DNA of 64,000 nucleotides from a virus (IMGVR_UViG_3300037067_013225:96001-160000); one strand, 5' to 3'; numbered from the stretch's first letter, positions 9,254 through 64,000 are shown. The notes: generated from the sequence alone by a model not told the origin. Program-made: numbers and translations.

Positions 9254-9626
9254 ATTCAAAACATCCCCATTAGGTCCACGCCCATGTGGGAAACCATGTG
9301 GCCGTGTTACGCCACCATTACTAGAGCCAAAACGTAGAGAATATTTCGATCCGGTATTTCAATTGGAGGAGGATGTTTTAACCGATTGTCCGCCGGAAGA
9401 AGAACTTATGGCTCCCACTAATGTACGTTTTAATGGAGTTAATTCTTTTTCTTGGAGTCCAGTAGATGGTGTTGTCGGTTATGAGATATTTAGAGACAAT
9501 CAGACCGAACCGATAATGTTGCTGGATAAATCTGTAACTAACTTTTCCGATATAGATACAACTACGCCGTACCAATATTGGATTAGATCCGTCTATTATT
9601 CGCGTGTATGGCCGCTGGAGGAATAA
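9234..9626 (+). CDS. Small fibronectin type III domain protein
   Basis: APTNV...SWSPVDGVVGYEIFRD...FSD...YQYWIRSV is an Fn3 pattern. Confidence 0.65.
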   Translation: MISDLTKFKTSPLGPRPCGKPCGRVTPPLLEPKRREYFDPVFQLEEDVLTDCPPEEELMAPTNVRFNGVNSFSWSPVDGVVGYEIFRDNQTEPIMLLDKSVTNFSDIDTTTPYQYWIRSVYYSRVWPLEE

Positions 9627-16702: not shown

Positions 16703-17478
16703 TGCTTAAACTGGTTAGAGATCTGAATGGGCCAGACGCAGATATCACGGATGTAGCGCTAAAAGCAGCAGACGGCTCTACTAATATTACTGATTTTCGT
16801 GAAACAGGATTGTTACTAATAGATGAGACTATGTGCGATTTTTTTAGATTAGCATTTTCCGATCAAAAACGCCTAGAAGATCATATTCATATCGGAGAAC
16901 CACGAGTAAATTTTGATGTTCCATCCATCTATGTGCGTGTACCTACAGTTCAGTACCGATCTTTTATCGGTAATAAAATGGGGCATAATTTAAAGAAGGA
17001 TAATGCTCTAGTATTGACGGAGCAATATGATCGAGACGGTAACGTTATCGGGCGTACCAGTAATATTGCGCAAAAAGACGCACCAGTGCAATATTTGGGT
17101 CATTTGGCCGTGGCGAATGCGACAATCCAATGTTATTCGGATAATTTCGATGTAATGAGAAATCTGGGTCACACCGTTTATAGTTTATTGATGCACAATT
17201 GTGAATATTACTTAAATGCCAGATCATCCGACTATAATGATACAATTAAAGAGAATCAGAATCCCGAATTCGGTGGTTTTTATCTAACGGGGCATCGAGA
17301 AAATTTTCACGACCAGATAGCGGGTGTAAAAAATGTCTATTCGATCTCTTTTGGATGTGTTATAAACTATATCATTCGCGTTCCAAGGTATTTTACATAT
17401 ATTACAGGCATCGATGTGACTGAGACTGTAGAGACACAAGATGGTGAATTTATAAAAACGATCCAAACAACCATTTAA
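16699..17478 (+). CDS. Putative neck/tail-completion (terminator-like) protein
   Basis: Lies immediately before the sheath gene; the size and the VPSIYV motif fit. Confidence 0.45.
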   Translation: MMLKLVRDLNGPDADITDVALKAADGSTNITDFRETGLLLIDETMCDFFRLAFSDQKRLEDHIHIGEPRVNFDVPSIYVRVPTVQYRSFIGNKMGHNLKKDNALVLTEQYDRDGNVIGRTSNIAQKDAPVQYLGHLAVANATIQCYSDNFDVMRNLGHTVYSLLMHNCEYYLNARSSDYNDTIKENQNPEFGGFYLTGHRENFHDQIAGVKNVYSISFGCVINYIIRVPRYFTYITGIDVTETVETQDGEFIKTIQTTI

Positions 17479-17479
17479 C

Positions 17480-17492
17480 AGGGTAAGATAAT
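17480..17492 (+). promoter_or_regulatory. Candidate phage late-promoter element AGGGTAAGATAAT
   Basis: Intergenic, 25 nt before the sheath ATG; an identical 13-mer lies at 41295-41307. Confidence 0.5.
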
Positions 17493-17517
17493 TTTGATAA
17501 AATCATGAGGGTTTACA

Positions 17518-49026: not shown

Positions 49027-49425
49027 TTAAAAATCTATCTCTTGGAAATCCCTTTCCATAAGACTGACAAAATATTTTTCCACGATTTTAATCATATCTT
49101 GTGCGTCGATAATTGTTTTATTTCCGATTGATACTGCGTTGATGGCCTCTTTCATCTCGCGCCACGTTATGGTCCATAGAATATCTGCCTGTCGCTCACC
49201 ATTCGGTGTATATTCGTGCGTCAATGCAGGTGGGCAGTGCTCTAATACTTGTATAAAAAACTCATAATATGGAAAATTATTATTTAACGAGTTTATTATT
49301 TCGCCGAAAAAGAGATCAACGAATTCCCTTTTCGCTATGTCGGCGCGAATAAGGACATTATCATCCGTAATATCTGTTAAATTAATGGTGAGTGATCTGC
49401 ACAGACTGCAATCATCTGCTAGCAT
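49027..49425 (-). CDS. Hypothetical protein with a C-terminal FQEIDF tag
   Basis: Coupled ORF with a GGAG RBS. Confidence 0.6.
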   Translation of the reverse strand: MLADDCSLCRSLTINLTDITDDNVLIRADIAKREFVDLFFGEIINSLNNNFPYYEFFIQVLEHCPPALTHEYTPNGERQADILWTITWREMKEAINAVSIGNKTIIDAQDMIKIVEKYFVSLMERDFQEIDF

Positions 49426-49979
49426 TTACTCCACCCACAATTAATACAATATTTACAACCAGCCTCATATACTAGGGACATTTCTGCACATGTAGGACAT
49501 TTCTCTATTTTTTTATTCTTAATATAGAGACTTAATCGTTTCGCTATATGATATGTGATGTTAGAAACGTTATGATCTAGAGAATTTAGCACATCTACCA
49601 CTCGCTCTACTGGAACTTCGTGCCGCAATAATAATGACACGGCTCTACTAAGTTTACCAGTATTCGGTTCGTTTTTTCCCTTAATCTTTTGCTCAGTTAA
49701 AAAGATATCCTCGATACCGAATAGCTTTCCTAGCTCATTCAATCTGTCTATAGCGTCAGATATATTTGCGGATGAATCTCGCGAATTCGTTTTAATGAAT
49801 ACTTCGTAAGGTTTTCCGTTGTGTATATTGATCGTTAAGTACCATTTCTTCCCCTCGGCTCTAATATCGTATGTTTTACCATCCAATACCGAGGGTCGTT
49901 TTTCAACGACACGTTCCATTTGAGCTAAATCACGGTTCACCTGAGAGATATCTGGATCTTCATTTGTCATTGTGCTCAA
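49419..49979 (-). CDS. NrdJb/TSCPD-like C-terminal subunit of class II ribonucleotide reductase
   Basis: KRPSVLDGKTY...YLTIN...KPYEVFI...LSRAVSLLLRH...CPTC...EAGCKYCINCGWSKC. Confidence 0.8.
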   Translation of the reverse strand: MSTMTNEDPDISQVNRDLAQMERVVEKRPSVLDGKTYDIRAEGKKWYLTINIHNGKPYEVFIKTNSRDSSANISDAIDRLNELGKLFGIEDIFLTEQKIKGKNEPNTGKLSRAVSLLLRHEVPVERVVDVLNSLDHNVSNITYHIAKRLSLYIKNKKIEKCPTCAEMSLVYEAGCKYCINCGWSKC

Positions 49980-50292
49980 TTTTCACATCCAATATTTGGG
50001 CTAGTTTTTCAAACCACAATAATGCTGTTTCGATATCATTGCTACTACCTAGACAGTGTTGGCGATTATCCTCAAAATGTATCCATAATTTAGCCACATC
50101 ACCTTCTTCGAACCGTAACCCAGAGACTAATTCGTGAGGGCAAAAACCCACCGGGATATTGCCTTCTCCGAATCCCTCATCAAAGAACAATAATTTTGTT
50201 TTTTTAGAGCACACAAAACTGTGTGGCTCTGACAGATTTGTACTAAGGGCCAAAACGCTCTCATTGTCGCAAAAATTATCAATCTTTTTCAT
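49960..50292 (-). CDS. Hypothetical protein
   Basis: Coupled ORF. Confidence 0.5.
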   Translation of the reverse strand: MKKIDNFCDNESVLALSTNLSEPHSFVCSKKTKLLFFDEGFGEGNIPVGFCPHELVSGLRFEEGDVAKLWIHFEDNRQHCLGSSNDIETALLWFEKLAQILDVKIEHNDK

Positions 50293-50815
50293 TCATGATA
50301 TCTCGGATTCTTTTAATTTTACTGGGATTGGTTATATTCCATTTATGCGTATGATCCTCTGAAATAATCAACGGTGTTAGTTCATTCTCGGAAATCTCCA
50401 AAAAGGTCATCCATTCTGGTAGCGCTTTGCGTTGCGATGATACATCCATGTTACGGAATATTTCGTTAAGATCTGCGAATACATGGATATTGCAGTCTTT
50501 CGGTGGTTTTACATTTCGGAAAAACATTTCTACAAAAAGATCCCATACTTCAGTATCAGACATTAGTATATTGTCTGAAATTACATCTTGTACATCGCAT
50601 ATCTCTATGTGTTTGAAAGCGATTTTCAATTGTGCGACGATATGTTTATGTATCTTTGTTACAACTTTACATTGTGTATTCTCGATCCAACTATACATAT
50701 CTGAAAAATCTTTCGGAAATGTAGATGATTTAATCACAGATGTAACGATATTGTCATAGATATCAGGATCTATGTCAATGAATAGGCTTCCAATTGAATA
50801 TGCTAGCGGTTTCAT
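50279..50815 (-). CDS. Hypothetical protein
   Basis: Coupled ORF with a GGAG RBS. Confidence 0.55.
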   Translation of the reverse strand: MKPLAYSIGSLFIDIDPDIYDNIVTSVIKSSTFPKDFSDMYSWIENTQCKVVTKIHKHIVAQLKIAFKHIEICDVQDVISDNILMSDTEVWDLFVEMFFRNVKPPKDCNIHVFADLNEIFRNMDVSSQRKALPEWMTFLEISENELTPLIISEDHTHKWNITNPSKIKRIRDIMNEKD

Positions 50816-51156
50816 TATTTACTCCGATTCCATAAAAACATCCACATATATAATATGCACAATCCGTGTTCTCCGATACTCAACAAGGCACGGCCCTTAT
50901 GATCCGCATCATTTGTCCATCTATTCAGATAGAATGAACCAATAGCCAATCCTCTACCTTTAGATCCTCCCCATACACAGTGAATTAACGCGCCAATACC
51001 GATACCGTATATGCAGAGTAATCCAATAGTGAGATCATAATTTTCAAGCAATCCTACCAAAAACGATATCCATGTCGGTGTATCGATATATAGAAAGAAA
51101 CGTAAGGTTTTGGTTTTCTTATAGTAACCTATTATATTAATCATAGAGCGTCCCAT
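50815..51156 (-). CDS. Hydrophobic, probably membrane, protein
   Basis: Several hydrophobic stretches; coupled ORF. Confidence 0.45.
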   Translation of the reverse strand: MGRSMINIIGYYKKTKTLRFFLYIDTPTWISFLVGLLENYDLTIGLLCIYGIGIGALIHCVWGGSKGRGLAIGSFYLNRWTNDADHKGRALLSIGEHGLCILYMWMFLWNRSK

Positions 51157-51416
51157 TCATCTTCGCTGAGAGTTACGAACTGATACGTGACGGTTTCACC
51201 ATCGGTCACGGCAGTAACGGCTTGTTGCATATAGTGAACGATATCGGCACAACTAACCAGATCTCGTCCGATGATTGCATCTTCTGGGCATTCGCATAGC
51301 GGTCCTACATATTGGACTTCCTTGCCATTGATGTATAGTTTTTGCCGGTCATAAAAATCGTCATCCGTGTATGAGTAAACTACAAGCTCCATGGTTTTTC
51401 TCTCCTGATGTGACAT
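51141..51416 (-). CDS. Hypothetical phage protein
   Basis: LCECPEDAIIGRDL segment; AGGAG RBS before the internal MELVV. Confidence 0.6.
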   Translation of the reverse strand: MSHQERKTMELVVYSYTDDDFYDRQKLYINGKEVQYVGPLCECPEDAIIGRDLVSCADIVHYMQQAVTAVTDGETVTYQFVTLSEDEWDAL

Positions 51417-51973
51417 TGTTTTTCCAAAATAGATATCGCGCGATGATATTTCGCTTGCTTCCGCTGATATCGGTTCAGATCTTCTCCCGATACTGATGTG
51501 AACAATTTTTCCACTCGTTCAGAATCGGTATTATGTCTAAGATCGGCCAACTTAACATATCCCGCAATCAGATTTTCGCTTGCGGCAATATTATCTATAT
51601 AAGTATCATATTCACAAAAATTATCATGCGTCAAGATATCGATTGTTTCCGCAATCGTGTCTCCAAACAATCCCTTGATAATTTTATATGTATTGGGGAT
51701 TTCTTTACTGCAAGGCTCTACAAATGGGCCATCCTCCCAAGCATCATGCAAATATGCCACTATTGTACAGTCATAATACAATGGATGAATAGTGAATGGC
51801 TTTGCGCTTGACTCCAATATATCTGATACGTGATTAACCACAGCATTGATATGATGCATATATGGCTTTCCCACAAGATCGTGCTGTCCGTAATGATATA
51901 GTTCCGCCATCGACCGAGCCATATCAACCTGGCGTTGTCTGTAACAGTAATCTGTTTCTGAATATTCTGGCAT
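51380..51973 (-). CDS. HD-domain hydrolase, RelA/SpoT-type small alarmone hydrolase-like
   Basis: HYGQHD..GKPYMHH...VAYLHDAWED...LTH...VKLADLRHN. Confidence 0.8.
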   Translation of the reverse strand: MPEYSETDYCYRQRQVDMARSMAELYHYGQHDLVGKPYMHHINAVVNHVSDILESSAKPFTIHPLYYDCTIVAYLHDAWEDGPFVEPCSKEIPNTYKIIKGLFGDTIAETIDILTHDNFCEYDTYIDNIAASENLIAGYVKLADLRHNTDSERVEKLFTSVSGEDLNRYQRKQAKYHRAISILEKQCHIRREKPWSL

Positions 51974-51979
51974 GGTCTA

Positions 51980-52008
51980 AGTATACCACGAAATCGCGTT
52001 AAAGTCAA
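51980..52008 (-). promoter_or_regulatory. Sigma70 promoter TTGACT-N17-TATACT (extended -10) giving a leaderless mRNA
   Basis: -35 at 52008-52003 and -10 at 51985-51980. The ATG at 51973 is the 7th base after the -10, and there is no SD. Confidence 0.8.
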
Positions 52009-52010
52009 GT

Positions 52011-52035
52011 AAAAAGGGCCGGTTTCCCGACCCTT
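52011..52035 (-). terminator. Intrinsic terminator
   Basis: Minus strand AAGGGUCGG-GAAA-CCGGCCCUUUUU. Confidence 0.85.
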
Positions 52036-52205
52036 CGACTTTCTCGCCTATCTTGCGAAGTAACCCCTTGGGTACTTTTCAGCGGAAAAGAACCTTCTGG
52101 CACTCATACTGGGTTTCTGCAACGTTGGTGCCGCGTTCGCAGGTTCCCAAATCCGTTCTACGGCCAATGATCGGTTGGTTGGAATATCCCACGGATTCCT
52201 CGTAT
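52011..52205 (-). ncRNA. Unidentified structured RNA of about 195 nt
   Basis: Bounded by a consensus promoter and a terminator; GC-richer than its surroundings; several helices and a GGCAC/GUGCC pseudoknot. Confidence 0.65.
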
Positions 52206-52211
52206 GCTCAG

Positions 52212-52240
52212 ATTATACCACAATTAGACGCCAATGTCAA
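52212..52240 (-). promoter_or_regulatory. Perfect-consensus sigma70 promoter TTGACA-N17-TATAAT with extended -10
   Basis: Minus strand TTGACA TTGGCGTCTAATTGTGG TATAAT. Confidence 0.9.
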
Positions 52241-52252
52241 GCGTTACAGGCA

Positions 52253-52411
52253 TCATTCTGTCTCATCCCCAGAATCAGCGTCATGTACGACAAGATTTTC
52301 CCATTGCCCACTGTGACAGAATTCACACTCTATATATAGTTGGGTTTGTGGTACATGTCTAACGTTATTAAGTTGCAAAAACAAAATATTATGTCCGCAT
52401 GGCGATAGCAT
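52253..52411 (-). CDS. Small ORF not in the track (52 aa, MLSPCGHN...IECEFCHSG...ETE), possible Zn ribbon
   Basis: Translated by hand; starts 1 nt after the nrdJ stop. Confidence 0.5.
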   Translation of the reverse strand: MLSPCGHNILFLQLNNVRHVPQTQLYIECEFCHSGQWENLVVHDADSGDETE

Positions 52412-52412
52412 T

Positions 52413-54410
52413 TCATTGTGCATATGGATGTCCGTATTTATTGATATATTCTGCGCTAAAATTATACTGATATTCTGGATCTAAATCTGTTGGATATTTA
52501 TCGAACAAAATAATTCCTACACGGCCCTCATTTCGTTGAACATAGATAGAGCAGCCCTTTAAGTTATGTTCATATGCGGCAATATATATTTTCTCTATTT
52601 CTGCCGGTGATGCATTATTCTCGTTAAGATTATATGTTACAGACACAGATGCATCGATCCATTTCTGAATACCTTCCATGAGGGATATTTTTTTGCGCCA
52701 ATTAATTTCATGTGCAACTTTGCATTCTTTTTTTGTGATTGCGGAATCCATTAATGCGATTTTTTCTTGGTCGGTAGATAATAGTTCCGGATCTATTCCG
52801 GTGCGTTCTAGGACAATTTGCCGTGCCACAGGATGTAAAATCAGTTGCCAGCGCCATTCATAGGGATAATTTTTCGGCACCACTCTAGTTCTGCGATAGT
52901 ACCAAGTATCCATGATTGGCTCTACTCCTGATGACGACTTCAATATGATTGATCCCGTACCAACAGGAGGTATTGTCAAACAACATACATTTCTCATTCC
53001 GTATTCGAAATCGCTATATTGGAACGTACCAGAATCGATTAAATGTTTCATAAATCCGGATTTAAATATCGGATGCTGAGAAATGACGTGCTTGGCTCTA
53101 TCAACTTTCCACAAACACCACGGTTTTCCATGAGATGATATAGTAGAATCATCCCATGCCGGATATGGTTCACGTTCTTTAGCCAACTTAATACTCTGTT
53201 TATACGCACCGATACACATTGCGCGAGTTAATTGTTCCGCGATATCGCATGCGCGATCTGAATCGTAAGCTATTCCACAGCGCAATAGATAGTCGGCTAG
53301 CCCGGTATATCCTACGCCAACACGACGCAATGCTTCTAAATCCTTGCGCTGTATAACTGTGGGACAGCGATCATCTCTAAGCTGGCAGGATACCGTGTTA
53401 TCTAGGAAATGTAATATTTCTCCCGCACGTGATTCTACCAACACCAAGGCTTTATCAAGATCGATTGGAAGATCGGCTAGATTAATATTGGATAACACAC
53501 ATGACGATCCATTTGATAGGATTTCCTCCGAGCAGCCATTAACCGATGCTATAGGATATCCTATGGCATCACTGTTGGACATGCGTTGTGATGTAGACCA
53601 ATATAATAACCCAGGTTCAGCATGTTCGTATGCATTCTGGGCGATTAGCTTCATTAATTTGCGTGCTTTAATAGTTTTGTATATTTTGTTGTCGAAGGTT
53701 AGATCCCATGTTGCGTTCTTTTTATACGCTTCGAAAAATGCATTGCTTATTTTTATGGAAATGTTAGCGGATTGAATTTTAGTATAGTCGCTTTTAACCG
53801 TAATAAATTCTTCTATATCGGGATGATTATCGTCAATGCATAATAGAAGCGCGCCGCGCCTATTGTGCGCGGCGATCAATCCGGTTGTTTGACTAAATAG
53901 TTGCATCCATGAAACCGCACCGGTGGAGGTTTTTGCCGCATTGTGTGTGGGTGATCCAGCGGGACGTAGAGCGGTCATGTCATAGCCAAGCCCTTCTCCG
54001 CGAGAACTGACTTTGGCGGTAATATATGCGGCTTCAAATATCCCTTCTAATGAATCTGCCTCTATGGGATCTCCGTTTCTATCTACGCCCAATGCGAATC
54101 CGGTGCAATTAATTAGAGATGTTTTGTCGGTATTTCCTGCACCATATATGATGCGTCCACCCGGAATAAATTCGCGATTGAACATCATTGAAAACCATTT
54201 TAGAGCCTTGGCCTGTTGTGAAGCTTTGTCTGGCTCTACTGATGCTATATATGTAGCTATACGCCAAAATACTTCGCCGGGAGTTTCTTTTGTTCCATCG
54301 GGCTTATCTAGGGCATATTTGCGATTAAATACATCTATTGCAAATTGATCGTGATTGAAATATTCTTCCGTTGTGATTGCTATTTCTGTCGGTTGCGATT
54401 GCTGTGTCAA
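52413..54410 (-). CDS. nrdJ: Class II (adenosylcobalamin-dependent) ribonucleotide reductase, catalytic subunit
   Basis: FIPGGRI, SLINC, GAVSWM, RRGA, HPDIEEFITVK, ANISI, AEPGL, NGCSE, SCVLSNINL, RRVGVGYTGLAD, QKWIDASVSVTYN, LKGCSIY. An NrdJb-like gene is nearby and no nrdB is in the window. Confidence 0.85.
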   Translation of the reverse strand: MTQQSQPTEIAITTEEYFNHDQFAIDVFNRKYALDKPDGTKETPGEVFWRIATYIASVEPDKASQQAKALKWFSMMFNREFIPGGRIIYGAGNTDKTSLINCTGFALGVDRNGDPIEADSLEGIFEAAYITAKVSSRGEGLGYDMTALRPAGSPTHNAAKTSTGAVSWMQLFSQTTGLIAAHNRRGALLLCIDDNHPDIEEFITVKSDYTKIQSANISIKISNAFFEAYKKNATWDLTFDNKIYKTIKARKLMKLIAQNAYEHAEPGLLYWSTSQRMSNSDAIGYPIASVNGCSEEILSNGSSCVLSNINLADLPIDLDKALVLVESRAGEILHFLDNTVSCQLRDDRCPTVIQRKDLEALRRVGVGYTGLADYLLRCGIAYDSDRACDIAEQLTRAMCIGAYKQSIKLAKEREPYPAWDDSTISSHGKPWCLWKVDRAKHVISQHPIFKSGFMKHLIDSGTFQYSDFEYGMRNVCCLTIPPVGTGSIILKSSSGVEPIMDTWYYRRTRVVPKNYPYEWRWQLILHPVARQIVLERTGIDPELLSTDQEKIALMDSAITKKECKVAHEINWRKKISLMEGIQKWIDASVSVTYNLNENNASPAEIEKIYIAAYEHNLKGCSIYVQRNEGRVGIILFDKYPTDLDPEYQYNFSAEYINKYGHPYAQ

Positions 54411-54413
54411 GTG

Positions 54414-54713
54414 TTATTCCTCGAAAAATTTACCATATAGCGCATTCATTATTTCGCTCGATTGTATAGCTTGCAATCCGCGCTTCTTCCATTCCCAATT
54501 AACCTGAAAGTCATGGCACCATATTTGGATGGGCATTTTACCGCAAGGGCAATGCAATCCCTCATTGGTAGCGATTAATCTGCCATGATTTAGTTGTTCC
54601 ATTCTATTGCAATCATCGTAAGAACAGCAAGTGAACGGATGAAACATGCCGCATTTTTGATATTCATTAAATGAAGCTACTTCGTCATCTGTAAATGGTG
54701 CTTCTTTTTTCAT
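54414..54713 (-). CDS. Cys-rich hypothetical phage protein
   Basis: HPFTC...LIAT..GLHCPC...QIWCH. Confidence 0.6.
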   Translation of the reverse strand: MKKEAPFTDDEVASFNEYQKCGMFHPFTCCSYDDCNRMEQLNHGRLIATNEGLHCPCGKMPIQIWCHDFQVNWEWKKRGLQAIQSSEIMNALYGKFFEE

Positions 54714-55486
54714 TTAAGTTTTTCCTTAACTTCCGCAAGGAAATCGTCTACGATATCCGATAGTGCGGAACTCCATTGTTTGCTATTTGATAGACGTTGT
54801 TCCAGTTTATCGATATATTCGGTTAGACATCCTACATGCGTTTGTGCATATCTTCCCGTTCCAAATAATCCGCGTGGTACATAGATTGACGGCCAACGAG
54901 ACGGCTTGCCAGACCATGGTTCACACGGTTCGCCACACAAACAACACGGATCTGTTGCATGTACATCTGTTTGGCTGGACAAAATCGTTTCCAGTTCAGA
55001 TATGCGTTTTTGATATTCCTCAATCATATCCGTTTGTATTTCTAATTCTACGCATTTCTGACATTGTGTTGTCCCCTCCCATAGCTCGTCAGAATATCCA
55101 CCATAGCGGGGGAACATGGCTCCACAGGTTGAACAGATATGAACATCAGATAGACTGTTGTTCTGCACTTTCAAATTCGCAACCAATGCATTGAGGGCAT
55201 CCACTTCTATGCACTTAGAACATCGCGTTACTCCATCCCACGCGGCATCCGGCAACCCGCGTCGATCAAACATTGCACCACATGTAGAGCAGGTGAATAG
55301 ATCGGATAGATTATTGATGCGTGTATTTTTTGCATCAAGTTGACGTACCACTGATTCAGGCAACTCAATCATTTCGTTATAATCTTCTCCGCAACCTAGA
55401 TTGCACCACCAAAGACGATTTTGCGGGTGATAACCGCACACTTTACATGCATAATGTTTATCCATCTTCAACCTCGCATTCATCAT
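54710..55486 (-). CDS. Multi-zinc-finger/coiled-coil protein with an internal duplication
   Basis: Two copies of LSDxxxCSTCGAMFxR...WxGxTxCxKC plus two further Cys/His clusters. Confidence 0.6.
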   Translation of the reverse strand: MMNARLKMDKHYACKVCGYHPQNRLWWCNLGCGEDYNEMIELPESVVRQLDAKNTRINNLSDLFTCSTCGAMFDRRGLPDAAWDGVTRCSKCIEVDALNALVANLKVQNNSLSDVHICSTCGAMFPRYGGYSDELWEGTTQCQKCVELEIQTDMIEEYQKRISELETILSSQTDVHATDPCCLCGEPCEPWSGKPSRWPSIYVPRGLFGTGRYAQTHVGCLTEYIDKLEQRLSNSKQWSSALSDIVDDFLAEVKEKLK

Positions 55487-55709
55487 CTGATGATGCCCAA
55501 GCGATCATATCCGGAGTCAAACTAATCGTGCATTCACCTCGCCCGCACTTGGCGAGAACGCACATTTTGGCAAATCTTGGACGTGGTGTGTTACATTTGG
55601 GGCATACCAATAATCCATCTGCATATATTTGTTCGCAGTTGATATTTATGGTAAAATCTACTCGTTCGTAGCAATCCTTCCCCATACAACCGTAATTATG
55701 TTCACTCAT
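55458..55709 (-). CDS. Small Cys-rich protein
   Basis: CxxxxC and CPKC; AAGGA RBS. Confidence 0.55.
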   Translation of the reverse strand: MSEHNYGCMGKDCYERVDFTININCEQIYADGLLVCPKCNTPRPRFAKMCVLAKCGRGECTISLTPDMIAWASSDDECEVEDG

Positions 55710-55889
55710 TTATCCTTTCCTTGAAAGATCCCTAGATTGTTCTCTTACTTTTGATGCGAAATCCCCACCCAGCGGCTCTAATAAATCTTCACTTTGCGTT
55801 TCATAAATATATAATTCCTCCATACAATTGGGACATATGCCATCATACATACGGCATCCGCAATCTTCGCAATAACTATATGTGGACAT
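55710..55889 (-). CDS. Small zinc-ribbon ORF not in the track (59 aa, MSTYSYCEDCGCRMYDGICPNCMEE...)
   Basis: Translated by hand; AGGAGAG RBS; abuts the next gene. Confidence 0.65.
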   Translation of the reverse strand: MSTYSYCEDCGCRMYDGICPNCMEELYIYETQSEDLLEPLGGDFASKVREQSRDLSRKG

Positions 55890-56613
55890 GTTCTCTCCTT
55901 AGAAATAGCTTTTCTGTAGCCTTTTTAGAGGCAATATCTTTCGTTAATGACGAACAAACATTCTGAGACCACAAACATACCCAATCTGGCGGTGCGTTAT
56001 ATTCGGAGACAAAAACCGGATTAGTTTGCGATTGGATATTGCACCACTCCCAAAATTCATCATGCGAAAAAGGTATTTCATACTGTGTGCTATTTTGATA
56101 TGGCGGATCGCAATACACTAGGGTATTTTTGGGTATGAATAGATCTTTGTAATTCATAGATATAAATTTTACGGTTTGAATATGTGGTAATTGTTTTAAT
56201 ACGTTATTTTTGCTTTCTAGACAGTGATTTCTTGGATCGCCATTCTTATTCTTACTTCGTGCATATCCACCAAACCACTTTCCCGCATAAGAACATCCCA
56301 CACCGATAAAACCAATATTAGCGGCAATGTCACGTTCTTTGGCGAATGATTCGCGACTTAGCAATCTATAGAAATTGTAAGTTTTTTCATCCAAGTCATC
56401 GGGTGGTATCCATCCGTTTTGTAGAGCCTGGAACATTTTTATTACGTAGATATTGATATCATTGCCGATGCGATTGAAAGTGGGAGGCACTTTTTCGATT
56501 AGATTAGCACCTCCCACGAAGGGTTCTAGCCAATTGGCGCGATTTGGCGCATATTTGAGCATTACCTGGATAAGCTCAGCCGCATATTTGGATTTCGAAC
56601 CCATGTACTTCAT
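55876..56613 (-). CDS. D12-class (Dam-like) N6-adenine DNA methyltransferase
   Basis: MKYMGSK, EPFVGGAN, VYCDPPY, VFVSEY. Confidence 0.9.
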   Translation of the reverse strand: MKYMGSKSKYAAELIQVMLKYAPNRANWLEPFVGGANLIEKVPPTFNRIGNDINIYVIKMFQALQNGWIPPDDLDEKTYNFYRLLSRESFAKERDIAANIGFIGVGCSYAGKWFGGYARSKNKNGDPRNHCLESKNNVLKQLPHIQTVKFISMNYKDLFIPKNTLVYCDPPYQNSTQYEIPFSHDEFWEWCNIQSQTNPVFVSEYNAPPDWVCLWSQNVCSSLTKDIASKKATEKLFLRREHVHI

Positions 56614-56928
56614 TTATTCGCCGCCCAATTTCTTCAGCAGATTATTCCAAATTGCTTCAAGCTCCTCCTTATCAAAATTCGCAATCATCTTCTTGAACCA
56701 CGCCGTAAGCTTTGCAAACTTGCGTTCGCCCAGCTTATATAGCTTGATCAATCCGATATGTACGGCAAAATCGGTAATCTTATCGTCTAGCTTGGATAAA
56801 TCCAACACATCCAAATCGCCAAATTTCTTTTCCAACTTGGCCTTTAGTGTGTCGATAAGTGCGGGATCAATTTGCAATCCCTTACCCTTCACCAGCTCTA
56901 CGAAATTTAAAAACTGACGCTTGTTCAT
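56614..56928 (-). CDS. Lys-rich helical hypothetical protein
   Basis: AGGAG RBS after an AT-rich spacer. Confidence 0.6.
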   Translation of the reverse strand: MNKRQFLNFVELVKGKGLQIDPALIDTLKAKLEKKFGDLDVLDLSKLDDKITDFAVHIGLIKLYKLGERKFAKLTAWFKKMIANFDKEELEAIWNNLLKKLGGE

Positions 56929-56972
56929 ACGTACTCCTAAAAAATATTACCTATTTATGATATTAATATTTA

Positions 56973-57602
56973 TCAAAAATCAATTTCTTGAAATTCTTTT
57001 AATTCAGAGTTCAGGGCGGCAATGGCGATATCAGCAAAGTTTATGTTTGGATTAGCTTGTGCGGCACAAAGAGCAGCATGAGCAGCATAAGCGGCAGTAT
57101 GAGCACCACTAGTACCAGCGGCATAAGCAACATAATAAGCAACATTAGTGATACTAGCAGCAGCATAAGTAGCATGAACGGCAGCGTAATAAGCGGCAGC
57201 GGTATTAGCAGCAGCACGAGGATGAGTTTTAGCCCGAAGCTTCCCTGATACAGTTTTGGCAGTCTCGGAGCTTCGATCCGTTCCATCAATCCAGGCATTC
57301 GCCCACGAAACGAACACAGGATCGTTGTACACGGCTAGCGCGCATTGGATCGCAAACCACTGACGCTGAACAAGAGTGAATTCCGGCACATAGGTCTCTC
57401 GCAGAAGTGTGAATTCGCCGTCAAAGCGCAGAAGATTATTTTTCTTGCCAGATGCTTCAAAAATCCTAAGATGTCCGAATCTCTCGAATATGGGGGTCGA
57501 AAGTACAGCTAATTCCGGGTTGGCGTAAGCAAAACCGAAGCGTTTTATGCCGATTTCCCACAAACCATCATTGTTCATGTTTTCGTCTGTGATCACATAC
57601 AT
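56973..57602 (-). CDS. Paralog family member A (Ala-rich C-terminus, FQEIDF tag)
   Basis: Near-identical core to 58420..59001 and 62296..62901. Confidence 0.75.
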   Translation of the reverse strand: MYVITDENMNNDGLWEIGIKRFGFAYANPELAVLSTPIFERFGHLRIFEASGKKNNLLRFDGEFTLLRETYVPEFTLVQRQWFAIQCALAVYNDPVFVSWANAWIDGTDRSSETAKTVSGKLRAKTHPRAAANTAAAYYAAVHATYAAASITNVAYYVAYAAGTSGAHTAAYAAHAALCAAQANPNINFADIAIAALNSELKEFQEIDF

Positions 57603-57607
57603 ATTTA

Positions 57608-57754
57608 TCAGAAATCGATCATGGTCAATGGTTTGTCATCCGGAGTATCTGGTGTATCATCGCCAAGGCGCGGCATTCCCATTCCCCATGAGGCGAATGC
57701 CTTAGCCCATAATTTGGGCCAGATATAGTTATCGACGCAATCTTCCGTATTCAT
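57608..57754 (-). CDS. Small ORF not in the track (48 aa, MNTEDCVDNYIWPKLWAKAFASWGMGMPRLGDDTPDTPDDKPLTMIDF)
   Basis: Translated by hand; GAGGAG RBS; ends in the shared IDF tag. Confidence 0.7.
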   Translation of the reverse strand: MNTEDCVDNYIWPKLWAKAFASWGMGMPRLGDDTPDTPDDKPLTMIDF

Positions 57755-57759
57755 CTAAA

Positions 57760-58095
57760 TCACTCCTCTCCGCAATTTTCACATTTCACCATAGCGGGAT
57801 TTATTAGCGAGGTTTGTATTGCGTTAATAAATCCGCATTTTCTGCATCTAAAAAATTTCCAATATATCACCGCTGGAAAGATCGGTATCAGCATCAAGGC
57901 TCTACAAAAAGCTACTAAACCAATCACTCCGCCATTATATAGGGCCAAATACCAAAATCCATATCGGCTCAAAACAACCATACCCCATCCGTATGCGGTT
58001 ATGGTTACTACCATTATACCATAAGCTAGTGCAAAAAGCAAGGCTATTTGGAGGCAATATTGTAGAGCGCTGGCTGCGCCAGATGTAAGTTTCAT
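57760..58095 (-). CDS. Membrane protein with a C-terminal zinc ribbon
   Basis: Hydrophobic helices followed by CRKC...CENC. Confidence 0.6.
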   Translation of the reverse strand: MKLTSGAASALQYCLQIALLFALAYGIMVVTITAYGWGMVVLSRYGFWYLALYNGGVIGLVAFCRALMLIPIFPAVIYWKFFRCRKCGFINAIQTSLINPAMVKCENCGEE

Positions 58096-58102
58096 AGTTT
58101 CC

Positions 58103-58420
58103 TCAGAAATCGATCATTGTTAGTTCTTTATATTTTAGAGATTCGGGTATTAGTGCTTCCAATTTATCTATGCAATCTTGCTTACTTCCTTGATGAAGTA
58201 CACCACCACCACACTCCATCAACATGATAATGTCATTGCGACAAGTATATGCTTTGTAATTACCATCGACTGGTACTATATTCCCATATAAACGGTTGTT
58301 TATATCTACACAGAACAGACAAGAGTCTCTATATTCTGTATACCATGATCTCTCTGTATACCATGATCTCGATCCTTTTTCGCGCATTTCTTGAGGCAAT
58401 TCGTCCCATGATACCATCAT
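58103..58420 (-). CDS. Hypothetical protein with a C-terminal LTMIDF tag
   Basis: Coupled ORF. Confidence 0.6.
   Translation of the reverse strand: MMVSWDELPQEMREKGSRSWYTERSWYTEYRDSCLFCVDINNRLYGNIVPVDGNYKAYTCRNDIIMLMECGGGVLHQGSKQDCIDKLEALIPESLKYKELTMIDF
58335..58370. repeat. Perfect 18-bp tandem duplication (RSWYTE x2)
   Basis: tctgtataccatgatctc twice in succession. Confidence 0.95.
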
Positions 58421-59001
58421 TAGAAGTCAATCTCCCAAAATTCTTTTTCAAACCATATCGCTTGCCGTGCAAGATCGGCATAATCTATGCCTGGGATGCC
58501 ATCCGTGGCAGAAACGTAGCTATCAAAATGGAGAGCGCTAGCATAAATGATAGATTTAACGGCCCAAGCGGGGCTAGTATAGAGGAGGGAGTCAAATTTT
58601 CTAATCTCATCGAGAACAGTTTTGGCAGTCTCAACGCTTCGATCCGTTCCATTGATCCAGGCATTCGCCCACGAGACGAACACAGGATCATTGCAGACTT
58701 TTAATGCGCATTGAATTGCAAACCACTGACGCTGAACAAGAGTGAATTCTGGCACATGGGTCTCTCGCAAAAGTGTGAACTTACCGCTAGAGCGCAGAGG
58801 ATGGTTCATTTCTCCCGATGCTTCAAAAATCCTAGGGTGGTCGAATTTCACATATGCGGGTTGTACAAGCACCGCTAGCTCCGGACTGGTATAGGCACGA
58901 CCACAATATATTTCACCGATTTCAACCGGAGTACCATTGGGGATATTCCCAGCTATAACCACATATGAAATTTTCTCACACATATTTAATACGCGCTCCA
59001 T
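58420..59001 (-). CDS. Paralog family member B (FWEIDF tag)
   Basis: Shares the PELAVL...RIFEASG...FTLLRET.VPEFTLVQRQWFAIQCAL...WANAWI.GTDRS core. Confidence 0.75.
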   Translation of the reverse strand: MERVLNMCEKISYVVIAGNIPNGTPVEIGEIYCGRAYTSPELAVLVQPAYVKFDHPRIFEASGEMNHPLRSSGKFTLLRETHVPEFTLVQRQWFAIQCALKVCNDPVFVSWANAWINGTDRSVETAKTVLDEIRKFDSLLYTSPAWAVKSIIYASALHFDSYVSATDGIPGIDYADLARQAIWFEKEFWEIDF

Positions 59002-62000
59002 AAACCTCTCTCAGCCAATGTAGTGTTGGTTCGTCAATATAGCCGGTTGTTTTTACCTCTCGTCTCGTTCTCCCCACAACAGAATAAATCACGATATCGC
59101 AATCTCCGGTTGGTAAATCCTCCAGCAGTGGCTCTACAAATTCATCTGCAACACGTATCATTAATGTAGAACCTTGGGGTTCCCATAAGTTTAGTTGTGA
59201 TGGGTCTTGTATTTTTACTCTACATGATGGCAAATATATATCGCCATCTTCACCGCATTCTGTGCTCAATTGTCCAGATATCGTTATAGGTAGACGTTCT
59301 TTTTTCGCCCGTGTTAAAATATCTATTTTCTCTTCCACAACCTTACTGAATCCAATAGCTTTTAAATTTTGCAATCCATCCGTTATTATAATATTCACAT
59401 ATGGAGATTTATTCTTTTTCGTTGCTTCGATGCTAAAATCTTCCACAAATCCGATAACACTAATATGTGGTGCAATATTGTTCAAAACGTCCGATGGTTT
59501 GATATACGATAGTTGCTTAAAGCATGCGTGTGCCATATACGGATTATATGTGAAGAAATCGCCCAAAACATCATATTCGGCATAAGCTTGATCATCTTGA
59601 GTCGTAACGATAGTTGTACCGGTTAATAACGATAATGCATCATCACGACCGCACAAAGTATCAAAAGCACCCGCATTAATTAATGCCTCAACAACGCGCT
59701 TGTTGCATTGGCGTTTGGGTACGCGAGTTATGAAATCGTCCACAGATGAAAAGGGACGCAGTTCTAGAAGTATTTTTAGAGCCGCAGGTCCAACACCTTT
59801 GATTCCCCCCAAACCAATACGTATAGCTGGATCAGGATCATATTCCACCGTATAGGATTGTCCGGAAGTATTGATGTTGGGCAAAAGTAAGCGATATCCG
59901 CCTTGACGAATATTATTTACAACACCCTTAATTTCTTCCGATTTGCCAATATATGAGTTTAATACAGCGCAATAGAACTCTGTTGGAAAATAATGTTTCA
60001 ACCAAAGCGTCTTATATGCTAGGGCCGCATAAGACATTGCGTGGCCCATGTTGAATGCATATAGCGCAGCATCTTTGATTTGTTTTACGATGTACTCGAT
60101 TTGATTGTGCGTATAGCCATTTTTGATAGCGCCTTGTTCGAAATCGTCCAACAGCAAGGCCATCTTTTCGGGAATTTTTTTCCCGCAAGCACTTCGGAGA
60201 TCGTCTGCTTTTGCTGGTGTAAAACCGGCTATTTTTTTGGCAATTTCCATAATTTGTTCCTGATATACCATAATGCCGCGAGAGCTTTTTAATAGCTGAT
60301 TTAGAGCGGATATTTTGTGTTTAAATCCACCCTTGACATATTGATCTGCCCAACCAGACATAGATACACCAGGGCGGATGATTGAGATTACATCTGCCAA
60401 TTCCAACTCATTTTTTGGATTTGTCGCTCGATAGTATTTTTGAGCCAAAGCGGAGCTTAATTGGAAGATATTATCTAAGCCATGTTCCGCCGCTAAAACA
60501 CTCGTATCGGAAAAGTCCGAATATTCCGGTATGATTTGCTCAGCGTGGCGCTGTTTGATGAAGTGTTCTGCTTCTTCGATTACGGTAACATTGCGTAGTC
60601 CGAGGAAATCAAACTTGATTTGTTTAGTAAATTTCTCTACCGATTCCATATCGAATTCAATCACCGGGAAAGCATCCTCATCACCTCGTCGCACAGGTAC
60701 AATATGATCGATATTGGTGCGACTCATAACGATACCAGATGCATGAATGCCGCGCGCGGAATATCCACCCTCAAGAGGTTTGGCGAGTTGAACAACTTTC
60801 TGTAGATTGTTTCTTGTAATGAAATCGGCCACTTGTTTTTGTTTAATATTCCAATCCAGACTTACTAAATTCCGTGTTCCCGGTTCGCTTTCCGTTAATA
60901 GTTCTGTGAATTCGTTCATGGTGGTAGCAGATACGCCCAATGCTGTCCCTACCGCCTTGACGGCGGTTTTAACAGTATAGCGCAGGTGCGTCCCCAAGTG
61001 GTAAACATGCCCGTAAGTTTCACTTAGATGCTCTAAGAATCTATCTCTACCAGTCCTAGATATATCACAATCGATATCTATCATGGATGTGTATGTACGT
61101 TTGCCATTTTCTATTTTGATACGGCCTTCGTTTAGAAATCGCGCAAAATCTAAATTATAATGAACCGGATCGAATGCCGTGATACCGCATAAATAATTAA
61201 CCAACGAGCTTGCACTGCTACCTCTCGATGGACCTGTAGCGATATGATTATTCCGGCACCAATCTAGTTCATCTGCGACGATTAACAGATAATTAGAGAA
61301 GCCGAAATCTGCGATGATTTTAAGCTCTTCTTTTAGACGTTCATTATATTGGGGGATGTTGAGAGATTTTTTTTCTAGAGCCAAGGCGCATTTTGCTGCC
61401 AAAATGGTAGATGCCGTTTCTTCATCTAGTACGGTATCGTTTAATTTAAATTGGGGCAGATTGTAATCTTCTACCGATGGATTAAATATCTCTATGCGAT
61501 CTGCTATTTCTCCACTTTGATGGACATATTTATCATCAAATTGATCGAGCATTTCTTGCTCGCTCTTGAAATAAAACGATTCGTCATAGACATATACGAA
61601 ATTTTTATCGCCAAGCTTTTTAGATTGTTTTTTGGATAGGAGGATTTTATGAGTATCTAGATGCGACGGTTCGACAAAATGAACGTCGTTTGTGGCGACT
61701 ACAGGTAGGCTATATTTTCCAGCTAAAGCGATTATTTGCGCATTAAGTGGTTCTTGGATATCTACGGATGGATGTTTTTGCACTTCTAAATAAAAGCGGT
61801 CTTTGAAAATATCATTCCACCGTTGTAAGCGTTCCTCAGCCTCCAAGGCTCTATCATCTTTCAATAATTTGCATATCAGTCCTCCCACACATGCACTTAA
61901 GCTTATTATCCCCTCATTATGTTGTTCTATTTCATTCCACGATATTCTCGGTCTGTAATAAAATCCCTCAGTATTAGCTATGGAGGAGAGTTTTACCAGA

Positions 62001-62296
62001 TTATGATACCCTGAGAGATTCTCTGCAAGTAATACTACGTGAGAATATTCTTTGGATTTTTGTTCTTTTTGCTGATTTAATGCTATGTCGGAGAAATAGA
62101 ATTCCGCTCCGAATATGGGTTTGATGTTATGTTTCGATGCCGATTTGTATAATTCTGCAAACGGTGACACAGTTCCATGTTCAGTTAAGGCTACCGCTGG
62201 CATATTTAGTGCGGCGGCTTTGGCGCAAATAGCATCTACACTGCCGAGAGCATCGTTCAAGCTATGTGTAGAATGATGGTGCAACGATATATACAT
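58976..62296 (-). CDS. dnaE: DNA polymerase III alpha subunit (family C)
   Basis: PHP domain (LHHHSTHSLND, ALTEHG, KPIFGAE, VVATNDVHF), GPSRGS, FARFLN, DIDCD, GIHASG, KFDFLGL, YQEQIM, YAFNMGHA, GLGGIKGVG. Confidence 0.95.
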   Translation of the reverse strand: MYISLHHHSTHSLNDALGSVDAICAKAAALNMPAVALTEHGTVSPFAELYKSASKHNIKPIFGAEFYFSDIALNQQKEQKSKEYSHVVLLAENLSGYHNLVKLSSIANTEGFYYRPRISWNEIEQHNEGIISLSACVGGLICKLLKDDRALEAEERLQRWNDIFKDRFYLEVQKHPSVDIQEPLNAQIIALAGKYSLPVVATNDVHFVEPSHLDTHKILLSKKQSKKLGDKNFVYVYDESFYFKSEQEMLDQFDDKYVHQSGEIADRIEIFNPSVEDYNLPQFKLNDTVLDEETASTILAAKCALALEKKSLNIPQYNERLKEELKIIADFGFSNYLLIVADELDWCRNNHIATGPSRGSSASSLVNYLCGITAFDPVHYNLDFARFLNEGRIKIENGKRTYTSMIDIDCDISRTGRDRFLEHLSETYGHVYHLGTHLRYTVKTAVKAVGTALGVSATTMNEFTELLTESEPGTRNLVSLDWNIKQKQVADFITRNNLQKVVQLAKPLEGGYSARGIHASGIVMSRTNIDHIVPVRRGDEDAFPVIEFDMESVEKFTKQIKFDFLGLRNVTVIEEAEHFIKQRHAEQIIPEYSDFSDTSVLAAEHGLDNIFQLSSALAQKYYRATNPKNELELADVISIIRPGVSMSGWADQYVKGGFKHKISALNQLLKSSRGIMVYQEQIMEIAKKIAGFTPAKADDLRSACGKKIPEKMALLLDDFEQGAIKNGYTHNQIEYIVKQIKDAALYAFNMGHAMSYAALAYKTLWLKHYFPTEFYCAVLNSYIGKSEEIKGVVNNIRQGGYRLLLPNINTSGQSYTVEYDPDPAIRIGLGGIKGVGPAALKILLELRPFSSVDDFITRVPKRQCNKRVVEALINAGAFDTLCGRDDALSLLTGTTIVTTQDDQAYAEYDVLGDFFTYNPYMAHACFKQLSYIKPSDVLNNIAPHISVIGFVEDFSIEATKKNKSPYVNIIITDGLQNLKAIGFSKVVEEKIDILTRAKKERLPITISGQLSTECGEDGDIYLPSCRVKIQDPSQLNLWEPQGSTLMIRVADEFVEPLLEDLPTGDCDIVIYSVVGRTRREVKTTGYIDEPTLHWLREVYGARIKYV

Positions 62297-62901
62297 TAAA
62301 AATCGATCTCCTGGAATTCTTTTAAGTCAAAGTTTAGAGCGTTGGCGGCGATATCAGTGAAGTTTATGCTTGGATTAACTTCCGCTGCATAATAAGCAGC
62401 ATCAGCAGCAAGAATAGTAGCGTTAGCAGCATAAGCAGCATCAGAAATATCAACAGCACAAGCAGCAGCATTAGCGGCGGCATCAGCAACAGCAACGTGA
62501 GTAGCACGAGTAGCATGATCGGCCCAAAACTTCCCTGATACAATTTGAGCAGTTTTGGAGCTTCGATCCGTTCCATTGATCCAGGCATTCGCCCACGACA
62601 CGAACACAGGATCATCACACACGGCTAGCGCGCATTGAATCGCAAACCACTGACGCTGAACAAGAGTGAATTCCGGCACATAGGTCTCTCGCAAAAGTGT
62701 GAATTCGCCATCAGAGCGCATAGGATCGTTCATCTCTCCCGATGCTTCAAAAATCCTAGGGTGGTCGAACGTCTCGTATATGGGGTTTATAAGTACGGCT
62801 AGTTCCGGGCTGGCGTAAGCAAAACCGGAACGTTTTATGCCGATTTCCCACAAACCATCACTGTACATATCTTCATTTATAATCACGTACATGTTCATCA
62901 A
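62296..62901 (-). CDS. Paralog family member C (Ala-rich C-terminus, FQEIDF tag)
   Basis: Colinear with 56973..57602. Confidence 0.75.
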   Translation of the reverse strand: MMNMYVIINEDMYSDGLWEIGIKRSGFAYASPELAVLINPIYETFDHPRIFEASGEMNDPMRSDGEFTLLRETYVPEFTLVQRQWFAIQCALAVCDDPVFVSWANAWINGTDRSSKTAQIVSGKFWADHATRATHVAVADAAANAAACAVDISDAAYAANATILAADAAYYAAEVNPSINFTDIAANALNFDLKEFQEIDF

Positions 62902-63224
62902 AAATCAATCTCCACGAATTGAATATCTAATGGTGAACTTATACTATTAAGCAGACTGAAGAATTGATCTACATTGATAATGGGAATTTGCCTTCCTTGA
63001 CGATGATTCCACTCGTCGAGCAATTCTTTTTTGGTGCTGTTTTTACAACCTCCCAAAACCAAATAGTCAACATTATAATAATCATACATTCTGTGTATTG
63101 TGGCTTTATGGCGGAAATATTCAGATCCCATTTCTTTATTCTTATCTTTTATGGCATCAATGAGTGTCTGACGCGAATAAATCGTTCTACCGGTAAAGAC
63201 AAACCTCATCAACATTCGTCCCAT
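62898..63224 (-). CDS. Stand-alone BRCT-like domain protein with an FVEIDF tag
   Basis: FVFTG...SR..L...VDYLVLG....STK....IPIINVDQFFSLL resembles the BRCT domain of NAD-dependent ligase. Confidence 0.6.
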   Translation of the reverse strand: MGRMLMRFVFTGRTIYSRQTLIDAIKDKNKEMGSEYFRHKATIHRMYDYYNVDYLVLGGCKNSTKKELLDEWNHRQGRQIPIINVDQFFSLLNSISSPLDIQFVEIDF

Positions 63225-64000
63225 TGCCCATTCGGGTGGATTTTGTATGTTTTGTAAACAGCTTCAGGAAACTGGTCGAAATAGGTTGTGGTCATATAAT
63301 CCTTCATATAAACGACTATGATTTTGGTATTTTTCACATCCAAATTTGTCCAAAACGATCCGTTAAAACATCCATCCGTAAATACATACGCGATACGGCC
63401 ATAGTCGCGATTATAATTGCCCTGATTTGTTAGATGTTCCATCCAACAATCATTTGTTCCACCGGATGTTTGAAATTTGTTATTCGCGATATCGGATTCG
63501 CTGCATTTATAAACGAATGTCGAAAAAGCATATACTTCATCGAAATAATCGATATTATATCGGATAGAATCAAAAAATATCTTATGATATGCATCAGTAG
63601 AGCCGGATACATCAAAATAAGCTGTTACGTAAAGATTCATATCCGGTAATGGACATTTAAAAAATGGTTGATGTACACGCATGGCACCATAAAGAGCTAG
63701 TTTACGATCTTTATGATGGGGGAATACGCGCCTGGTGGAACGATCTCCTCTGATTTTTAGAAAATCCTTTTCTAGTGTTTGCTTTAACCCAACCGGTGTT
63801 GAAACAATTGGAATATCTTGTGTTGGATCGTGATGATATTCGGAGAAAAATTCATCAACTATCTCCTCATACAAAGTCGTGGCTGTTGGATCGCAACCTT
63901 GAGATCCCTTTTTAGCTTTTCTGGTTCCAGGTTTTTGTCCCGACTCAGAAAGTTCCTTCAACGCTTCTGCAATGGCGGATTGTATTTCCGGATCGATAAT
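63209..64000 (-). CDS. VWA-like (MIDAS) domain protein, DUF2201-type; 5' end lies outside the window
   Basis: FDVSGS, SGGT and VFTDG motifs; the reading frame stays open from 63961 to the window edge. Confidence 0.75.
   Translation of the reverse strand: MIDPEIQSAIAEALKELSESGQKPGTRKAKKGSQGCDPTATTLYEEIVDEFFSEYHHDPTQDIPIVSTPVGLKQTLEKDFLKIRGDRSTRRVFPHHKDRKLALYGAMRVHQPFFKCPLPDMNLYVTAYFDVSGSTDAYHKIFFDSIRYNIDYFDEVYAFSTFVYKCSESDIANNKFQTSGGTNDCWMEHLTNQGNYNRDYGRIAYVFTDGCFNGSFWTNLDVKNTKIIVVYMKDYMTTTYFDQFPEAVYKTYKIHPNGQWDEC

Follow-up and report, generated by a model that had tools for sequence, protein, structure and literature searches.

The window analysed here, a stretch of 64,000 nucleotides, comprises bases 96001-160000 of the virus record IMGVR_UViG_3300037067_013225, which belongs to an uncultured phage and is called G000 below. 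The record is linear, with 202,677 bp, 39.9% GC and 91% completeness by CheckV. A 59-kb ENA contig, 100% identical to it, reaches about 699 bp past its start, and the left end of the record is therefore not a physical end. Around the phage gene for the alpha subunit of DNA polymerase III (dnaE), several small open reading frames (ORFs) of dissimilar sequence finish in the same short peptide, with I-D-F as the last residues before the stop codon. This C-terminal tail, its spread over the genome and its counterparts in related phages are the subject of what follows; positions are those of the window unless they are marked as genome positions.

The tagged genes of the window all lie on the minus strand, as do the neighbors among which they are found. 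One of them, of 132 amino acids (aa), is located at 49027..49425 and ends MERDFQEIDF. The array at dnaE begins with a 209-aa ORF (56973..57602; ELKEFQEIDF), which belongs to a family of nine tagged paralogs distantly related to DUF7666 and carries its tail as an extension of about 10 aa beyond the usual family end. There follow a 48-aa ORF (57608..57754), in which a Pro/Asp-rich linker leads into the tail to give the end PDTPDDKPLTMIDF; a 111-aa zinc-ribbon ORF (57760..58095), which is untagged here and also in the relative G001, where it is kept; a 105-aa ORF (58103..58420; KYKELTMIDF); and a 193-aa ORF (58420..59001; FEKEFWEIDF), a divergent member of the nine-paralog family. The dnaE gene itself (58976..62296), encoding the PHP, polymerase core, fingers and HhH regions, is untagged, and its product is 44% identical in G001. 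Beyond it lie the reference member of the nine-paralog family, of 200-201 aa (62296..62901; DLKEFQEIDF), a 108-aa ORF (62898..63224; IQFVEIDF) and the 3' part (63209..64000) of a 549-aa gene encoding a zincin and a VWA (MIDAS) domain, the MoxR AAA+ partner of which is just outside the window. The tagged proteins of 132, 48, 105 and 108 aa are BLAST singletons.

An earlier reading of the window, made from the sequence alone, had listed these seven ORFs by their ends (RDFQEIDF, KEFQEIDF, KPLTMIDF, KELTMIDF, KEFWEIDF, KEFQEIDF and IQFVEIDF), and all seven were confirmed. It had divided them among five unrelated families, in agreement with BLAST comparison without the tails, which places three in one family and leaves four singletons. 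The VWA gene that it noted next to the array was found to specify the zincin motif HEVMHSALGH together with the VWA MIDAS motif DVSGST. Its description of the 108-aa protein as BRCT-like is plausible rather than established: the BRCT domains of RFC and ligase are among the top matches (prob ~0.9), with E values of at least 0.01 and a model pLDDT of 66.

When C-termini were tabulated over the whole proteome, the tail proved to be far more widespread than the seven cases of the window, which were real but an undercount. Among 319 ORFs across G000, 46, or about one gene in seven, end in [IV]DF (40 IDF and 6 VDF), compared with an expectation of 0.13 from residue composition (Poisson P ~2e-99); the second-commonest C-terminal tripeptide occurs twice. 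In the DNA, the pattern E-I-D-F-stop is present 32 times, and its reverse, used as a control, does not occur. The sequence-only reading had also placed six of its seven proteins in a cluster around dnaE, which holds within the window, whereas many clusters exist genome-wide. The conserved part extends beyond the last four residues, to the consensus D-[DE]-[KR]-E-Φ(L/F/Y/W/M)-[Q/V/T]-[E/M]-[I/V]-D-F-COOH. In seven control phages (five complete DnaE phages of 94-219 kb, cyanophage P-SSM2 and 140 kb of KVP40) at most 2-4 ORFs share any C-terminal tripeptide, a number equal to that at an internal control position. KVP40 also has no PExx[LI] tail and no match to PF13203. A full-text literature search found no published description of such a tail.

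Codon usage in the tails is mixed. Glutamate is encoded by GAG 19 times and GAA 15 times, isoleucine by ATT 21, ATC 16 and ATA 3 times, aspartate by GAT 42 and GAC 4 times, and phenylalanine by TTT 26 and TTC 20 times, while the stop codons are TGA (22), TAA (22) and TAG (2). The nucleotide information in the tail is concentrated in codon positions 1-2, and past the stop codon it drops at once to background level. Because the codons are mixed and DNA conservation ends at the stop, the target of selection was concluded to be the peptide rather than a DNA cassette, as the sequence-only reading had supposed from the codon variation in its seven genes; a repeat cassette, a coupling signal and other causes at the DNA level were ruled out by the same limits on conservation. 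The motif [EM][IV]DF is terminal in 45 cases (~0.01 expected) and internal in 3 (2.1 expected). This enrichment at the C-terminus only implies that the free C-terminus is part of the signal, and on these statistical grounds the tail appears to work solely at a free C-terminus.

The carriers of the tail have little else in common. After the last eight residues of each tagged protein had been trimmed, BLAST resolved the 46 carriers into one nine-member family, two pairs and 33 singletons, about 36 groups in all. The same short peptide is therefore found on otherwise dissimilar proteins, which is the mark of a C-terminal docking or address motif. That it is an appendage is clearest in the nine-member family. 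Homologs of the 200-aa protein on other contigs, some of which score as DUF7666, end in a sequence like LAKEALxW/Y-K-E, about 10 residues before the tail, and two paralogs within G000 (genome 10098-10685 and 197646-198353), which sit beside tagged genes, likewise stop at the natural terminus of the family, whereas the nine tagged paralogs run about 10 residues further, to DLKEFQEIDF. The two untagged paralogs are natural minus-tail controls within one genome. In an AlphaFold2 model of the 200-aa member (pLDDT 91, pTM 0.88) the last helix extends to residue 188, after which the chain is a coil outside the fold (residues 189-200, pLDDT about 61); a fold search returned no solved structural relative of this family.

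For two carriers a known family could be recognized. One is a homolog of Tad3, the inhibitor of type I Thoeris (genome 187115-187513, minus strand), which matches PF25185 with an E value of 1.8e-27 and 95.9 bits, against a curated cut-off of 27; the match spans positions 1-102 of 119, and the tail follows. The literature describes Tad3 as a dimeric inhibitor in direct contact with ThsB, the Thoeris sensor. The second is a radical-SAM enzyme of 474 aa, and searches of the 46 carriers against Pfam and PHROGs yielded no families beyond these two.

Other properties of the carriers point to the stage of infection at which they act. Segments resembling transmembrane helices or signal peptides occur in 0/46 tagged ORFs and in 31/273 of the others (Fisher P 0.012), and the net charge per 100 residues is -5 for the tagged proteins and -0.3 for the rest. 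None of the 14 head-module ORFs and none of the 39 virion-block ORFs carries the tail, which agrees with the earlier remark that no late protein is tagged. Immediately upstream of several tagged clusters are near-consensus sigma70 promoters (TTGACA-17-TATAAT). Genome-wide there are 40 near-perfect promoters of this kind (at most 1 mismatch to TTGACA-16..18-TATAAT), for example at 52183-52212 on the minus strand, and several of them share one 29-nt version, TTGACATTCGCGCTTAAATGCGCTATAAT. The lack of membrane or signal segments, the acidity, the location outside the virion blocks and the sigma70 promoters together lead to the conclusion that the tagged proteins are soluble, cytoplasmic and early, of the class transcribed by host RNA polymerase. 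Many of the sigma70 promoters stop about 3-7 nt upstream of the ATG, those at tagged clusters often 6-7 nt from it, which suggests leaderless early transcripts. G000 also encodes a sigma70-family factor of its own (genome 166030-166947).

The main new result concerns related phages, which use tail dialects of their own, with matching proteins carrying each phage's version. The nearest relative found, G001, is complete (220,861 bp, 31.7% GC), and its portal and capsid proteins are 52% and 62% identical to those of G000, with which it has 98 proteins in common. IDF-stop is present there at control level only, and there is no set of IDF tails; instead, 14 ORFs end in D-[LI]-[ED]-[IVLF] (DLEI five times, DLEV twice, DLDV twice, and others). 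For ends of the form DL[ED][IV], 0.03 is expected (Poisson P ~3e-22), the motif shows no internal enrichment, and its codons are again mixed. In a third relative (capsid 53% identical, 38% GC) four adjacent small genes end YLDLEI, FIDIEI, TLEIDL and FWDIEL. All dialects have a common plan, acidic-aliphatic-acidic-hydrophobic-COOH. A 71.6-kb Logan contig was covered over part of its length, and the capsid of one further contig, a JGI contig of 134 kb, is 76% identical to that of G000.

Two matched pairs of proteins show the exchange directly. The 108-aa protein of the window, ending IQFVEIDF, has in G001 an ortholog of 114 aa (32% identical) that ends PENVDLEI. The proteins encoded directly after the AEP primase end EMQMIDF in G000 and DFELEI in G001, and this pair is tied together by synteny and a shared FWCDF block. 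Thus, the tail is exchanged as a unit between relatives, on orthologs and non-orthologs alike, as a co-evolving tail-reader pair predicts. The sequence-only reading had staked itself on conservation of the tail in homologs, and this held in part: homologs in unrelated phages are without it, because it is an appendage, while orthologs in related phages carry their own dialect. Apart from G000, none of the viral and metagenomic contigs scanned has two or more E-F-x-E-I-D-F-stop tails, single matches being found on 6 viral contigs and at least 113 metagenome contigs. Distant DnaE phage loci gave no such tails, and scans of IMG/VR with capsid, ClpP and VWA alignments found no relative besides G001.

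The tail is best explained as a short linear docking motif, portable and dependent on a free C-terminus, and it forms a flexible extension behind unrelated folds. It probably serves as an address that is read by one common, co-evolving reader. Such a reader would bind all of the tails, probably by beta-strand addition or through a carboxylate-binding pocket, in a mode that may be likened to that of class II PDZ ligands, for example connexin-43 DLEI-COOH, and would then deal with their carriers collectively. Since the dialects change in step with the phage lineage, a phage-encoded reader that evolves along with them seems more probable than a conserved host machine. The modular addressing of diverse proteins that had been proposed for the seven ORFs is in keeping with these data, in which the tail is an add-on, disordered, confined to the C-terminus and co-varying between relatives on matching proteins.

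In ligand chemistry the closest parallel is provided by the class II PDZ motif, Φ-x-Φ-COOH, as in connexin-43, whose DDLEI end binds PDZ2 of ZO-1 (PMC8393261). These ligands share with the tail the free C-terminus, hydrophobic residues at positions 0 and -2 and acidic residues at -1 and -3, and the D-L-E-I dialect of G001 is literally the connexin-43 motif. Since profile searches with the PDZ families PF00595, PF13180 and PF17820 (PDZ, PDZ_2 and PDZ_6) detected no member in either G000 or G001, the likeness lies in ligand chemistry only and not in membership.

Among the hubs suggested by the sequence-only reading, the clamp and SSB are not encoded, judged by the profiles PF00712 and PF00436, and the recognizable carriers are an anti-defense protein and a radical-SAM enzyme rather than replisome components; the MoxR/VWA pair has been retained, by analogy, as the best candidate. 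This pair adjoins dnaE and is conserved and syntenic in G000 and G001. Its first member is a MoxR-class AAA+ ATPase of 516 aa with AAA_3, AAA_5 and bpMoxR matches. Its second is the 549-aa zincin-VWA protein, which has a weak match to PF13203 (E 2.3e-4) and Atlas feature matches to DUF2201_N clusters; the zincin motif reads HEVMHSALGH in G000 and HEIMHYALGH in G001, and the VWA MIDAS (DxSxS) is intact in both. In tblastn searches against deposited phages neither protein found a match. Conservation, synteny and analogy make the pair the leading candidate for the reader, though a tentative one. As the reader, it would take hold of the acidic C-terminal peptide at the VWA/MIDAS site; remodeling of the client by MoxR would come next, possibly with clipping by the zincin domain.

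The analogy derives from two bodies of published work. VWA domains have been proposed to capture a client peptide for remodeling by MoxR, and zincin peptidases have been described that accompany small, fast-diverging proteins conserved only in a short C-terminal peptide, sometimes together with radical-SAM proteins (Kaur et al. 2020, PMC7159879). In these modules, with their FxSxx-COOH, RxD and acidic types of peptide, small diverging proteins carry a short C-terminal peptide as they do in G000, and the zincin, VWA, MoxR AAA+ and radical-SAM parts are all present in the phage. The differences are that the phage joins zincin and VWA in one protein, that the motif is another one, and that the published modules have one precursor beside its peptidase, whereas G000 has 46 folded clients of 48-474 aa spread over the genome. 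A third component of the ternary systems (VMAP, iSTAND or FtsH) is not evident among the annotated neighbors, although no search was aimed at it. The second precedent is the widespread viral cobST pair, consisting of a CobS/MoxR AAA+ protein and a CobT VWA/MIDAS protein, for which cobalt chelation with host CobN has been proposed (PMC8651126). Like the pair in G000, it places a MoxR-class AAA+ protein beside a VWA/MIDAS protein, often annotated as a peptidase, and is conserved in tailed viruses; the role proposed in print is cobalt chelation, whereas peptide capture is proposed here.

Several points weigh against an address tail with a phage-encoded reader and against this candidate in particular. 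The reader was not identified by any test that was run. The link to the MoxR/VWA pair is one of conservation, synteny and analogy only, and as G000 and G001 are kin, the co-occurrence of pair and tail is one evolutionary observation. Cyanophage P-SSM2, a cobST phage according to the literature, has no shared tail and no match to PF13203; a pair of this type would thus at any rate not suffice. The dialects may track different hosts instead of a phage-encoded reader, the GC contents of G000 and G001 being 40% and 32%. Finally, the ORFs are crude longest-ORF calls, and the counts may move by a few.

Were the address reading correct, the reader of the tail would decide what becomes of most early accessory proteins of the phage, at least one anti-defense protein among them. 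The tail could be used as a handle to find the reader and to spot functionally linked dark-matter genes in large phages, with the lineage-specific dialects as a built-in specificity control of cognate versus non-cognate pairs, and might help to direct foreign proteins in engineered phages. Should the MoxR/VWA-zincin pair be the reader, the widespread viral cobST-type pair would gain a function.

Phage-encoded peptidases raise the question of whether the tail is instead a degron, marking early proteins for timed destruction by the phage ClpP, by an HslV-like peptidase or by a host AAA+ protease, with the Φ-x-Φ-COOH end docking like the [LIV]-G-[FL] loops of Clp ATPases or the HbYX tails of the proteasome. 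The disordered, C-terminal nature of the tails would suit such a role. The ClpP-family gene (genome 187811-188431, L019:17811-18428; PF00574, E 4.3e-22) has an early-type promoter and lies between the tagged Tad3 gene, from which it is divergently oriented, and recA. The context of its Ser-His-Asp triad is intact and aligns with that of solved ClpPs (MEROPS S14 / PF00574), and the phage protein forms a distinct subfamily, with the signature EIMSxGGC and without the N-terminal axial-loop region of cellular ClpP. G001 has this gene in common (52426-53052), but its product has lost the catalytic His and Asp although G001 uses tails. The docking pockets of ClpP normally accept Φ-x-Φ loops. When three copies of the phage ClpP (100-row alignment) were co-folded with the 48-aa tagged protein, the score was 0.02, the mark being 0.32, which by the rule of the method has no bearing on whether the two bind.

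The second potential protease is an HslV/proteasome-beta-like Ntn-peptidase of 175 aa (MTCIVAIK..GGDS..K..AIGSGEEYALG; genome 69693-70220, L012:18693-19217), whose gene is directly after a tagged gene, a position favorable to a degron, and has a weak M64-peptidase-like ORF upstream. The peptidase is missing in the tail-using G001, and for this reason it was also set aside as a reader, as was a Ro60 VWA protein, likewise without a homolog there. The acidic residues at -2 and -4 set the tail apart from known bacterial C-degrons; the C-degron ssrA ends LAA, and its DD variant resists ClpXP. In addition, proteasome homologs are known, though uncharacterized, in many phages, and no such tail has been reported with them (PMC8665760), which speaks further against the degron. 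On balance this role is unlikely.

In a variant that combines the address with processing, the tagged proteins would form an adaptor system. Each would bind a different host target, and the tail would deliver binder and target to the MoxR/VWA-zincin complex, where the delivered targets would be remodeled or cleaved. The Tad3 homolog and ThsB would be the model binder-target pair, and the tail-reader code would drift between phage lineages. Bacterial viruses would then have an equivalent of the viral adaptors by which a single hijacked degradation machine is turned on many targets; this variant, too, has little probability.

The setting of the array prompts comparison with the replisome, for which the tail could be an acidic-aromatic docking peptide directed to a clamp, a polymerase, a helicase or a pocket of an SSB partner. 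Many tagged genes flank dnaE in the window, and two conserved tagged proteins are encoded in the replication module, beside dnaE/VWA and directly after the AEP primase. Replisome tails that end DF-COOH and the tail of RB69 gp43 resemble the phage tail: SSB-Ct DDDIPF, the DF ends of T7 gp2.5 and gp4 and the clamp-binding tail of RB69 gp43 are all acidic-hydrophobic docking peptides with a terminal aromatic residue and a free carboxylate. Those, however, are found on one to few proteins, and the relatives' dialects of the tail end in I, V or L, which are not aromatic. The SSB-Ct class (D-D-D-[IL]-P-F on an OB-fold SSB) was rejected because PF00436 is absent, position -1 is D and not P, and the carriers are not SSBs. 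A sliding-clamp-binding tail was rejected because PF00712 is absent (the T4 gp45 family was not searched for) and most carriers are not replication proteins. The absence of both hubs also counts against a replisome address, as do the nature of the identifiable carriers (a ThsB-binding anti-defense protein and a radical-SAM enzyme), the scattering of tagged genes through accessory islands genome-wide, and the number of clients, 46 being far beyond those of any known replisome hub. A replisome address is accordingly quite improbable.

Capsid targeting, whereby tagged proteins would enter the procapsid by means of the tail and be co-injected, has a mechanistic parallel in the encapsulins, whose HK97-fold shells take up cargo through C-terminal cargo-loading peptides. 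Tagged clusters adjoin the capsid gene in two phages, and co-injection would benefit an anti-defense protein. Short portable packaging signals also have precedents in the capsid-targeting sequence of T4 IPIII and the N-terminal signal of P1 DarB (PMC9024508). Like the tail, these are short transferable peptides that address unrelated proteins, including anti-restriction proteins; they differ in being N-terminal, in serving few late virion proteins and in being cleaved in T4, whereas the tail of G000 is C-terminal and borne by 46 early-class proteins. This role fits poorly with the near-consensus sigma70 promoters, which are of early type, and with the position of the tagged genes apart from the virion modules; moreover, an Fe-S radical-SAM enzyme is improbable as ejected cargo, and 46 species would make a very long cargo list, so that capsid targeting is very unlikely.

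Least plausible of all is mimicry of a host hub, in which the tail would copy the C-terminal ligand of a host cytoplasmic PDZ-like or carboxylate-binding protein and the dialects would differ with the hosts; DLEI-COOH is, after all, a genuine animal class II PDZ ligand (PMC8393261). The GC contents of the three phages (40, 32 and 38%) suggest different hosts, and the PDZ families searched revealed no recognizable reader domain in the phages. Nevertheless, bacterial PDZ domains are mostly extracytoplasmic and the tagged proteins have no export signals, and a common hub would predict multiple E-F-x-E-I-D-F tails on other scanned viral and metagenomic contigs, where none were seen.

Several further features of the genome were recorded. 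Between the capsid gene and a tagged cluster are genes for a LAGLIDADG homing endonuclease and a Mom-like protein (genome 63274-64341 and 64322-65173); in one relative the Mom domain is fused to HNH. A block for sugar or glycan biosynthesis, including a GT17-like glycosyltransferase and a DegT aminotransferase, among others, occupies genome 70972-82945 and G001 5701-18461, with 54-70% identity between the two phages, as high as or above that of the capsid protein. A protein with a cREC_REC (cyclic-phosphate processing receiver) domain, encoded at genome 5185-5493, is 50% identical in G001. The virion block is headed by a giant ORF of 3,726 aa (genome 90893-102073), which occupies positions 1-6073 of the window on the plus strand and has counterparts of 4,550 aa in G001 and 3,560 aa in the third relative.

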